DNA of 64,000 bases, taken from assembly GCA_028708815.1 (NCBI GenBank), contig JAQVYB010000001.1:13589-77588 (forward strand). The letters are read 5' to 3'. The DNA comes from Kiritimatiellia bacterium. Its GTDB lineage: Bacteria > Verrucomicrobiota > Kiritimatiellia > RZYC01. Below, piece by piece: positions 28,029 through 29,593 of this stretch. Below the pieces are notes generated by a model. The model saw nothing but the letters and a program-made list of their open reading frames with translations. It made no database searches and was not told the origin of the DNA. The stretch's first letter is position 1; the number at the start of each line of letters is the position of its first letter. Both the position numbers and the translations under genes were made by a program.

Positions 28029-28150
28029 TTTCCAACGATTGGAAAAAACGTCCAAAAAGTTTCCAATGATTGGAAAAAACGTCCAAAAAGTTTCCAATGA
28101 TTGGAAAAATGCTCTGAAAAGTTTCCAATGGTTGGAAAAGCCCGGGAAAG
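28029..28150. repeat. Four tandem 31-bp direct repeats, each containing the perfect palindrome TTCCAATGATTGGAA (first copy TTCCAACGATTGGAA)
   Basis: Units at 28029, 28060, 28091 and 28122 have the form TTTCCAA(C/T)GATTGGAAAAAACGTCCAAAAAG. They progressively diverge towards the 3' end. Confidence 0.9.
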
Positions 28151-28187
28151 GTTAGTGGCCCCCCCCCCCGACGGATTGAATTAGGCC

Positions 28188-28216
28188 TTGACCCGGTATG
28201 AGGGTGTCAGTACTAT
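28188..28216 (+). promoter_or_regulatory. Sigma-70-type promoter TTGACC-N17-TACTAT upstream of nusA
   Basis: -35 TTGACC at 28188-28193, 17-bp spacer, -10 TACTAT at 28211-28216. About 110 bp upstream of the nusA ATG. Confidence 0.6.
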
Positions 28217-28327: not shown

Positions 28328-29593
28328 ATGAATAATGAATTATTGGCCGTATTGGAATATATGGAGAGAGAGCGGGGTATTGAGCGGGAATCCCTCATAC
28401 AGGCTCTGGAATCGGCTTTGTTGAGCGCCGCACGAAAAAGCGTGGTGGAATCCACGGATATTCGCATTAACATCGATCGCGAAACCTATGACATCAAAGC
28501 GATTGCCCGCAAACGGGTGGTCGAAAAAGTCAAAAATCAACACGATGAAATTTCCTGGGTCAAGGCCCGGATGCTGCGTCCCGAAGTGCAGTTGGGCGGT
28601 ACGGTGGACGTCGAGGTGACCCCGAAAAACTTCGGACGCATCGCCGCACAGACCGCCAAACAGGCGATTATGCACAAGATACGCCAGGCGGAAAAAGAGC
28701 GCGTCTATGATGAATATCGCGACAGCGCGGGAGATATCGTCAGCGGTGCGGTGCGCCGCTTCGAGCGCGGCGACGTGGTGGTGGATCTGGGCCGCGCCGA
28801 GGGGCTGATGCCCATGCGCGAGCGGGTGCCGATCGAAGAATATCAGGTGGGCGACCGGCTTCGTGCGTATGTGGTGCGCGTGGATAATACGCCGCAGGGC
28901 GCGGAAATCATTCTTTCGCGCAGTCATCCGAATTTTGTGCGCCGTCTTTTCGAACTCGAGGTGTCGGAGATTTCAGATGGCACGGTGGAAATCAAGGGCA
29001 TCGCCCGTGAGGCGGGATTCCGCAGCAAAATAGCGGTGCATTCACACGATGAAAAAGTGGATCCGGTGGGCGCGTGCGTTGGGATGCGCGGCATCCGGGT
29101 GAAGAACATTGTCCGCGAGTTGTCGGGTGAAAAGATTGACATTGTCCGCTGGAGCGACGATATACGCACGTTTGTGACGAACTCTCTTGCGCCCGCGAAA
29201 CTGAGACATGTGAGCGTGGAGGAAGCCGAACACAAGATTTGCGTTCAGGTGGATAACGATCAGCTTTCTTTGGCCATTGGTAAGAAAGGGCAGAACGCCC
29301 GGCTCACGGCCAAGCTGACCGGCTGGAAGGTGGATATCCAACGCGAAGAGACCGATGGCGGTTTTGCGGAAAAAGTCGCAAAAGCCGTTGCCGATCTGGC
29401 CCAACTCGAAGGCGTTGGCCCGGAACTGGCGGAGAAACTGGTGCATGGCGGCTTTGCCTCCATGGAAGGCATCGTGACTGCCGAGCTGGAAGATATCGCC
29501 GCACTGGATGGTTTTGATGCGGAACTGGCCAGCCAGGTCCATCAGGCCGTCGAAAAAGCATACGAAGCAATGAACGGACCGATAGAGGATTGA
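28328..29593 (+). CDS. nusA: Transcription termination/antitermination factor NusA
   Basis: N-terminal, S1, KH and AR1-like domains. Immediately followed by infB with a 4-nt overlap. Confidence 0.93.
   Translation: MNNELLAVLEYMERERGIERESLIQALESALLSAARKSVVESTDIRINIDRETYDIKAIARKRVVEKVKNQHDEISWVKARMLRPEVQLGGTVDVEVTPKNFGRIAAQTAKQAIMHKIRQAEKERVYDEYRDSAGDIVSGAVRRFERGDVVVDLGRAEGLMPMRERVPIEEYQVGDRLRAYVVRVDNTPQGAEIILSRSHPNFVRRLFELEVSEISDGTVEIKGIAREAGFRSKIAVHSHDEKVDPVGACVGMRGIRVKNIVRELSGEKIDIVRWSDDIRTFVTNSLAPAKLRHVSVEEAEHKICVQVDNDQLSLAIGKKGQNARLTAKLTGWKVDIQREETDGGFAEKVAKAVADLAQLEGVGPELAEKLVHGGFASMEGIVTAELEDIAALDGFDAELASQVHQAVEKAYEAMNGPIED

Follow-up and report, generated by a model that had tools for sequence, protein, structure and literature searches.

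A helically phased array of TTCCAA-N3-TTGGAA palindromes upstream of nusA as a local instance of a candidate protein-docking element of the Kiritimatiellia

In a 64-kb stretch of the Kiritimatiellia bacterium contig JAQVYB010000001.1 (hereafter the window, meaning the whole stretch analysed), four copies of the palindrome TTCCAA-N3-TTGGAA follow each other at exact 31-bp intervals between glpK and the promoter of nusA. We found the same palindromic word, spaced where clustered by close to whole turns of the DNA helix, at about 107 of 116 listed loci, all in Kiritimatiellia-type genomes and beside genes of unrelated function. Its half-sites are conserved in one comparison of orthologous blocks, the array at nusA differs in unit number between two assemblies of the species, and it is not conserved at nusA in related genomes. 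We favour, at a confidence slightly below even, the reading that this array is a local instance of a class-wide element whose sites dock a conserved dimeric architectural DNA-binding protein, and that it is not a switch dedicated to nusA.

Results

The array occupies positions 28029−28139 (no strand assigned), with cores at 28030−28044, 28061−28075, 28092−28106 and 28123−28137 separated by 16-bp spacers rich in A-tracts. An earlier reading of the bare sequence (the original prediction) had described four 31-bp repeats, each with a perfect palindrome. This was confirmed by Tandem Repeats Finder, in which the array is the top-scoring one of the window (period 31, 3.6 copies, 91% matches), and by a motif scan, which finds four zero-mismatch copies of TTCCAA-N3-TTGGAA starting at 28030, 28061, 28092 and 28123. 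Every other site in the 64-kb window has at least two mismatches. The first palindrome has 9-bp arms (TTTTTCCAA-CGA-TTGGAAAAA). The units had also been described as progressively degenerate downstream; this is true of the spacers but not of the palindromes, all four of which are perfect, the fourth being altered in its centre alone (TGG). Gene family assignments and a promoter scan agree with the placement of the array between glpK and the nusA promoter, and the sequence likewise contains the predicted run of 11 C residues (C11, 28159−28169, no strand assigned) upstream of the −35 element. The 3' end of this run lies 18 bp upstream of the −35; it is the longest homopolymer of the window and its sole intergenic G/C run of 7 or more.

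Two other interpretations of the repeat were rejected. A coding or small open reading frame would not fit a period of 31, which is not a multiple of 3, and the codon-based gene caller calls no gene there. The repeat might also be read as a promoter in itself (TTGGAA-N17-TCCAAT); we dismissed this because arrays elsewhere show no orientation bias relative to genes and include 22-bp spacings that do not fit such a promoter. Rfam searches, at gathering thresholds for the window and by E-value for 27900−28400, returned sub-threshold noise only.

We scanned the query TTTCCAAYGRTTGGAAAA against one genome per species in a 596-Gb collection, where by our own calculation about 69 chance matches are expected, and obtained at least 116 loci. 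Among the 116 matches listed, about 107 lie in Kiritimatiellia-type genomes, including Pontiellaceae records that are not labelled as metagenome-assembled genomes (MAGs). These loci are labelled Kiritimatiellae, Kiritimatiellales, Pontiellaceae, Pontiella or Tichowtungia, or carry the older labels 'Verrucomicrobia', 'Lentisphaerae' and 'Spartobacteria', in which case they were taken as Kiritimatiellia-type from the motif itself. About nine of the matches listed come from other phyla and have the ascertained site only, except for one that has two. Within the 817 kb of fetched loci we counted 434 sites when one mismatch was allowed among the 12 specified bases, compared with 1−3 expected. The search for further copies that the original prediction had proposed yielded none elsewhere in the window and hundreds at Kiritimatiellia loci. 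The palindromic word TTCCAA-N3-TTGGAA is apparently undescribed so far. A literature search found the 15-mer core in no paper of the library searched and 11-mer fragments only in papers unrelated by title and abstract, and keyword searches on repeats and motifs of Kiritimatiellota and Pontiella returned nothing relevant.

The consensus of the sites is tTTTCCAAT-S-ATTGGAAAa, in which a core of 15 bp is often prolonged to 19 bp. This AT-rich core (TTCCAAT-S-ATTGGAA) is flanked by positions that contribute a T/A extension only (TT/AA), and spacer positions hold no more than about 0.2−0.3 bit each. Centre-to-centre spacings across the 116 loci fall into discrete classes of 31 bp (93 cases), 32 (35), 22 (26), 30 (15), 42 (5) and 33 (5), with a few at 21, 63 and 73 and almost nothing between the classes. 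Spacings of 22, 31−32 and 42 bp are close to two, three and four helical turns. The sites thus have the features of phased dimer sites, namely a palindrome of roughly 15 bp whose half-sites are conserved and whose centre is free, repeated at whole-turn distances across sequence-free spacers. Because the spacers are free and the cores conserved, these arrays represent conserved sites at fixed spacing, and not mere tandem copies of one unit. The proposal that the 31-bp geometry suits cooperative binding of a dimeric regulator thus holds up for the element as a whole, with spacing near whole turns across 116 loci and conserved cores, but not for an operator specific to nusA.

Some layouts recur. 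The commonest among arrays of at least three sites in the fetched loci is (31,31,31), with 7 cases. Adjacent spacers are at least 75% identical in 17% of comparisons, compared with 8% between arrays; mean spacer identity is 0.54 within arrays and 0.53 between them. Four rumen-clade loci (L016, L098, L114 and L119) have in common a six-site layout of (22,30,22,30,31) or (22,30,22,31,31), 150−151 bp in size, with partly similar spacers, and related six-site layouts are found at L023 (22,31,31,30,22) and L053 (22,30,31,31,22). This shared rumen-clade layout suggests either a defined particle size or the spread of whole arrays. We also observed that TTGCACAATCYGCTGGC recurs about 25−35 bp past one array end at L064, L077, L088 and L114, and more weakly at L079; it was not found next to the window array.

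Because stop-to-stop open reading frames proved too permissive, we assigned gene context with a codon log-odds caller, which recovers the genes of the window. Arrays of at least three sites are outside genes in 36 of 39 cases, though 83% of the DNA is coding. Arrays of at least two sites occupy 51 tandem, 15 divergent and 8 convergent intergenic regions, roughly in proportion to intergenic length, and array polarity has no bias relative to gene direction. Two convergent cases (L035 and L054) were verified by Pfam, with the pairs DnaJ/hydrolase and isocitrate dehydrogenase/PATR protein; the 'convergent' pair at L112 was dropped, as a tRNA scan places it just 3' of a tRNA-Ser gene. The genes downstream of arrays come from heterogeneous, functionally unrelated families. 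Since the adjoining genes are unrelated and no DNA-binding family recurs among them, the element is not a regulon operator. Nor do the sites keep a fixed position upstream of regulon promoters: the genes are mixed, some arrays stand between convergent genes, and four relatives lack the array at nusA.

The motif is used in three distinct ways. Loci of the Pontiellaceae, Tichowtungia and Kiritimatiellales types carry 0.4−1 additional site per kb, mostly singles, about 70% of which are in genes, with reading phases distributed 20/20/18. The genome AM-2014_bin-1020 has a pair of sites 32 bp apart, with GC-rich spacers, in most of its intergenic regions. The window's clade, the rumen genomes and several sediment MAGs have sparse arrays of 3−7 sites, and a high density of dispersed sites is seen neither in the window (one array in 64 kb) nor in the rumen-clade loci.

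Sites within genes have a variable palindrome centre. We checked three such sites in truB and ribF of L009, a distant Kiritimatiellales genome, and found that they align without gaps to the window orthologues, which have ordinary codons at these positions. This gap-free alignment with motif-less orthologues indicates that the three sites arose by substitution, not by insertion. In the orthologous blocks L069 and L082, which are 81% identical, all 4 of 4 sites are retained. Their half-sites differ at 2 of 48 positions against a background of 18.7% (binomial P = 0.0035), and their centres at 4 of 12, in a comparison comprising one orthologous pair and four sites. In this small sample, such half-site conservation carries the signature of selection, or drive, on the palindromic word.

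A second assembly of the same species (L001) has a NusA that is 100% identical to that of the window and only 3 single-nucleotide differences in about 3.9 kb of flank. Its array region differs from that of the window by an exact 31-bp deletion (three units vs four), by three substitutions, all at spacer or palindrome-centre positions, and by a C tract of 9 instead of 11. A copy-number difference of whole units between near-identical genomes is the behaviour of a variable-number tandem repeat. The comparison of related strains suggested by the original prediction thus revealed differences in both unit number and C-tract length, with the reservation that both are metagenome assemblies, so that the C11/C9 difference may be a sequencing, assembly or consensus artefact. 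We found no further alleles by look-up with the window GlpK or by metagenome scans with window-specific flanks.

The array is missing at nusA in L002 (94% NusA identity), L005 (92%), L145 (89%) and L006 (87%), although in all four the promoter and leader are conserved almost to the base. Genomes of the 94% and 87% relatives have similar arrays elsewhere (L034, L065, L068, L087, L117 and L115). In the more distant L009, two sites precede the nusA −35 by about 90 bp, in a register unlike that of the window. The C tract is missing in L002, L006, L145 and L009. Absence from close relatives, together with a lack of copy-number or tract-length polymorphism, had been named as evidence that would speak against a function of the array; the absence is real, yet the polymorphism does exist.

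The C tract was rejected as part of the element, since the association of G/C homopolymers with arrays elsewhere (5 observed vs 2.5 expected) is not significant, and C11 is thus not a recurrent companion of the arrays. L005, which has no array at nusA, carries a run of 10 G (2786−2795) about 60 bp upstream of the nusA −35, making it the second long homopolymer at this intergenic position; it is unrelated to C11 of the window and lies further upstream.

Sites also occur on viral sequences. Several sites each are present on about 12 high-GC IMG/VR contigs, in some cases spaced 22/31 bp, and one of these contigs encodes terminase, portal, protease and major head proteins. IMG/VR contig 3300035698_006241 has two arrays (L135, 3429−3505, and L140, 650−767), separated by about 1 kb, just upstream of the terminase-portal-head module of a phage or prophage, where a role at the packaging site or at an operon boundary is possible.

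In a dinucleotide wedge model, with angles after Bolshoy et al. 1991, the window array has a predicted end-to-end/contour ratio of 0.65, the most curved of 492 window tiles. None of 300 shuffles reached this ratio, 11 of 500 periodic shuffles of the unit were as curved, and the predicted curvature collapses outside a 30−32-bp period. Converted to an angle, the ratio would correspond to a predicted bend of about 180 degrees. Other arrays of the window's clade are also predicted to be curved. For the AM-2014_bin-1020 pairs, whose spacers are GC-rich, the model predicts straight DNA (ratio 0.99), and curvature is therefore a clade feature and not a conserved property of the element. At the RNA level, the array folds better than its shuffles (z = −6.4), as expected of any palindrome array; its hairpins are short, AU-rich and weak, and by eye the paired sites examined form no larger hairpin. 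Arrays are often nearer to the upstream stop codon than to the next start (by our own reading, medians of roughly 40 vs 100 bp).

Discussion

We favour docking of a conserved dimeric protein because the palindrome is class-wide, its centre and spacers are free, the spacing follows whole helical turns, orientation is indifferent, a phage contig carries the sites, and half-sites within genes are conserved. Each palindrome would dock a dimer of a sequence-specific architectural protein acting like Fis, IHF or Lrp, and dimers on neighbouring sites would make contact on the same DNA face. In the window's clade, phased A-tracts would pre-bend the DNA, and the four sites would form a bent or wrapped nucleoprotein complex of about 110−130 bp between the glpK terminator and the nusA promoter. 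With transcription predicted to start about 7 nt past the −10, the site centres would be near −93, −124, −155 and −186. Any effect on nusA would be at most modulatory and dispensable, such as upstream activation or insulation from glpK. Array length would change by gain or loss of whole 31-bp units, and C11 would be an independent slippage-prone run outside the element that could shift the rotational register of the array relative to the promoter. In this scheme protein binding, cooperativity and any transcriptional effect are what we infer from the sequence comparisons.

A broader proposal, which we hold as a real possibility though not as the expected outcome, is that the sites form a chromosome-marking system of the Kiritimatiellia, in which a dimeric protein reads a selected 19-bp palindrome genome-wide; alternatively, they could be the first uptake-signal system outside the Proteobacteria. 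If a marking system exists, each genome would have hundreds to thousands of selected sites, deployed according to clade as singles, pairs or phased arrays of 3−7. Clustered sites would then wrap pre-bent DNA into particles of 110−190 bp, a new chromatin or boundary element that phages exploit.

Several points weigh against a docking protein. No DNA-binding family recurs beside the arrays, and the gene neighbourhoods offered no candidate for the binding protein. The window's genome is poor in the motif, with one array in 64 kb and no other site below two mismatches; given this rarity, it is not obvious that the clade would need an abundant nucleoid protein. Clades also diverge strongly in how they use the motif (singles within genes, pairs between genes, or long but sparse arrays), and a single protein with a single role may not account for all of this. 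The 42, 63 and 73-bp classes could be composites that conceal a degenerate site, and the independent classes would then be reduced to 22 and 31−32 bp. Parts of the rumen-clade spacers and the flanking motif recur between loci, which resembles copy-and-paste of whole arrays, and the predicted pre-bending depends on the wedge angles used. Finally, a DNA-uptake drive would explain the in-gene enrichment and conservation equally well.

That last possibility would make the palindrome a DNA-uptake signal preferred by the competence machinery and spread by biased uptake and recombination, with the nusA array a by-product of local duplication. The dispersed sites of the Pontiellaceae-, Tichowtungia- and Kiritimatiellales-type genomes agree with it, both in density and in their presence in genes in all phases, as do the origin of in-gene sites by substitution, the half-sites conserved between species, and the use of one motif across a whole class in the manner of an uptake dialect. 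We nevertheless judge it unlikely, since uptake sequences are not known to form phased arrays of 3−7 copies with strict 22/31-bp spacing, the arrays on a phage head/packaging contig are left unexplained, and in the window's genome the one array is accompanied by no dispersed singles. We are similarly doubtful of a selfish or structural extragenic repeat, of the type of repetitive extragenic palindromes (REPs), bacterial interspersed mosaic elements (BIMEs), REP doublets forming hairpins (REPINs) or miniature inverted-repeat transposable elements, that is copied between intergenic sites, amplified by slippage and tolerated with no role at nusA. Fast turnover is what such a repeat would predict: the element is absent at nusA in close relatives yet present elsewhere in their genomes, and its unit number differs within the species. 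A similar density per intergenic bp in all contexts, the lack of orientation bias, the excess of near-identical adjacent spacers, and the (22,30,22,30,31) layout, partly similar spacers and flanking TTGCACAATCYGCTGGC of rumen-clade arrays are also in its favour. It is harder to reconcile with many in-gene copies born by substitution, as REP-type elements are strictly extragenic insertions, and with a core kept class-wide while spacers are on average no more alike within arrays than between them. The hairpins, moreover, are AT-rich and weak, without a GTAG or CGTC tag, and by eye the paired sites examined form no larger one. We could identify no Y1 or other transposase among the best 25 of 86 families listed for 77 array-adjacent genes, nor among the genes of L064, L068, L077 and L088.

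The remaining explanations we regard as improbable. Phased A-tracts could form a static bend that acts independently of protein, stimulating RNA polymerase or serving as a topological barrier. The extreme curvature predicted for the window array, its dependence on the 30−32-bp period and the predicted curvature of further arrays in the clade would suit this, but the class-conserved part is the palindrome and not the A-tracts, the GC-rich-spacer pairs are predicted straight, in-gene singles and half-site conservation go unexplained, and the predicted curvature depends on the model parameters used. The original prediction, a dedicated nusA-infB operator or activator array with C11 as a phase-variation device resetting the array-promoter spacing, now seems to us distinctly improbable. 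It draws on the position upstream of a conserved sigma-70-type promoter, the three-turn spacing, the unit-number and C-tract differences between two assemblies of the species, and the two sites upstream of nusA in L009. Against it, four closer relatives keep the promoter and leader without the array, the register to the promoter differs between the window and L009, and the element also stands beside unrelated genes and between convergent ones. Its slippage switch fares no better: array and C tract are absent in relatives, the tract polymorphism comes from two metagenome assemblies, whose C11/C9 difference may reflect errors of sequencing or consensus calling, arrays elsewhere show no significant link with G/C tracts, and nusA-infB is a housekeeping operon and not a contingency locus. 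We consider an RNA-level element very improbable. Here the array would be transcribed, in the glpK 3' untranslated region or from another promoter, and its hairpins would protect mRNA or bind an RNA-binding protein. The array does begin at the U tract of a terminator-like hairpin after glpK, arrays are often nearer to the upstream stop codon, and the fold is better than shuffles (though any palindrome array must be). However, the single hairpins are short, AU-rich and weak, Rfam has no match, helical-turn spacing is a property of duplex DNA, and in-gene copies occur in all phases and orientations.

Among known systems, the favoured docking element resembles Fis-site arrays. Fis sites are found upstream of the E. 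coli rrn P1 promoters at about −71, −102 and −143, and also at other promoters of stable RNAs and translation operons. As here, a 15-bp palindromic core occurs at several sites three to four turns apart upstream of a strong housekeeping promoter; Fis binds as a dimer, bends DNA and is used by phages, whereas in our case binding is proposed and sites are seen on phage contigs. Fis sites are, however, highly degenerate and gamma-proteobacterial, while the core described here is nearly invariant and also occurs between convergent genes and, in some clades, within genes. Arrays phased at three turns are known for Lrp at pap and ilvIH, for NrdR box pairs and for NtrC at glnAp2. These share with our arrays palindromes of about 15−17 bp and centre distances of 31−32 bp (about 21−22 for NtrC), and cooperative same-face binding with DNA wrapped round an oligomer would be the proposed analogy. 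They differ in being regulon-specific with fixed promoter positions, whereas the present motif is genome-wide, favours no gene class and has a consensus unlike theirs.

The REPs, BIMEs and REPINs of Enterobacteria and Pseudomonas are likewise dispersed, clustered palindromes with quantised linkers and strain-variable copy number, often located after genes. In contrast to the AT-rich, class-wide motif found here, which enters genes by substitution, they are GC-rich, bear GTAG/CGTC tags, occur strictly outside genes, are restricted to a species or family, and are associated with RAYT transposases. Neither confinement to extragenic DNA nor a GC-rich tagged palindrome is seen in the Kiritimatiellia sites; CGTC is present in 2 spacers of the window array but is not family-wide. 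The DNA uptake sequences (DUS) of Neisseria, the uptake signal sequences (USS) of Pasteurellaceae and the cyanobacterial highly iterated palindrome HIP1 resemble the motif in being over-represented hundreds-fold, up to about one per kb, in and between genes, in being conserved across a family or class, and in arising by point mutation. Neither DUS nor USS is palindromic or known to form phased arrays of 3−7 copies, HIP1 is only 8 bp long, and the window's clade lacks dispersed singles. The F-plasmid sopC, with 12 tandem 43-bp units each holding a 16-bp inverted repeat, also has one palindromic site per unit at a constant period; it is a single array per replicon with whole-unit identity, unlike the numerous dispersed arrays with free spacers described here. 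With the C-stretch of Bordetella fim and the promoter G/C tracts of Neisseria, the nusA locus shares a C run of 9−11 between upstream sites and the −35 whose length differs (between two assemblies); those tracts serve surface contingency genes, whereas this one precedes a housekeeping operon, is not kept in relatives and has no regular partnership with arrays.

Compared by eye, the motif matches none of the consensuses for sigma-54, IHF, Fis, Lrp, parS or Noc. Phasing, clustering and over-representation each have precedent, but to our knowledge no described element combines them, and the motif has a substantial chance of marking a hitherto undescribed system. Should this view of the motif prove right, it offers a handle on genome organisation in a poorly studied lineage of the Planctomycetes-Verrucomicrobia-Chlamydiae group that degrades polysaccharides in oceans, sediments and the rumen. 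A 19-bp bait (TTTTCCAATGATTGGAAAA) could capture the protein and would yield a genome-wide site map, and the clades form a natural series in which the same word is used in three ways. For annotation, caution is advisable: such arrays should not be read as gene-specific operators.

Flanking genes, promoter and leader

The upstream neighbour of the array is glpK (glycerol kinase, 26446−27939, plus strand), identified by TIGR01311 (705 bits, cut-off 590) and by Pfam FGGY_N and FGGY_C. An RNA fold of 27930−28035 places pairs within 27999−28027, followed by UUUUU, with a z-score that is not significant; we take this hairpin with its T5 run (27999−28031, plus strand) as probably terminator-like. This T run also forms part of the first palindrome's left arm.

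The nusA promoter block (28179−28216, plus strand) consists of AATTAGGCC, a −35 TTGACC at 28188−28193, a 17-bp spacer and a −10 TACTAT at 28211−28216. TTGACC-17-TACTAT (28188−28216) was the sole sigma-70-like match of the promoter scan in 27500−28700. In an alignment of 7 nusA upstream regions, conservation begins abruptly at AATTAGGCC-TTGACC and continues through the −10, the leader hairpin and a T run to the start codon. The sharp onset of conservation makes the promoter call well supported. All sequence 5' of AATTAGGCC, array and C tract included, is unalignable among the relatives, which places the array in a dispensable part of the intergenic region. At this locus a conserved promoter and leader hairpin are thus set apart from a fast-evolving, dispensable upstream module. 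AATTAGGCC itself (28179−28187), directly 5' of the −35, is invariant among the closer relatives and partly altered in L009; it could act at the nusA promoter as an UP-like element or as a binding site for a factor.

The leader (28217−28327) contains a GC-rich hairpin, AAGAGTGGG / CCCACTCTT, followed by TTTTG (28244−28273, plus strand). This hairpin is kept in 6 of 6 aligned lineages, with NusA identities of roughly 70−100%, and some of its base pairs are preserved via changes on both sides. It looks like a terminator or attenuator, possibly for NusA autoregulation; Rfam has no matching family. The gene nusA follows at 28328−29593 on the plus strand (TIGR01953, 422 bits; Pfam NusA_N and KH_5), and the operon order downstream of the array is nusA-infB-rbfA-truB-ribF.

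The upstream neighbour of nusA is glpK in L002 and other genes in L005, L145 and L006, and gene order upstream of the conserved promoter varies in nearly every relative. In L145 a tRNA-like sequence, recognised by eye only, takes the place of glpK (1−75, minus strand).

Several observations were made at array loci in other genomes. Stable-RNA genes had a site within 250 bp upstream in 3 of 9 cases (tRNA scan of 107 loci), not clearly above the approximately 1.3 expected under ascertainment. Sites are seen about 60 bp upstream of a tmRNA (transfer-messenger RNA) gene (L058, 1367−1381), about 95−150 bp upstream of tRNA-Val (L106, 5672−5727) and about 200−250 bp upstream of tRNA-Gly (L094, 7728−7773), positions that hint at promoters of stable RNAs. 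At L064 (1817−4945), a D12 adenine methyltransferase and a DUF6996/DUF6997/DUF7226 protein, together restriction-modification-like, are bracketed by two inverted arrays. We discarded the idea that these arrays are transposon ends, as the cargo consists of the methyltransferase and the DUF6996/6997/7226 protein, with no transposase. On the outer side of both arrays there is a copy of TGCACAATCTGCTRGCTCGCC together with a C/G run.

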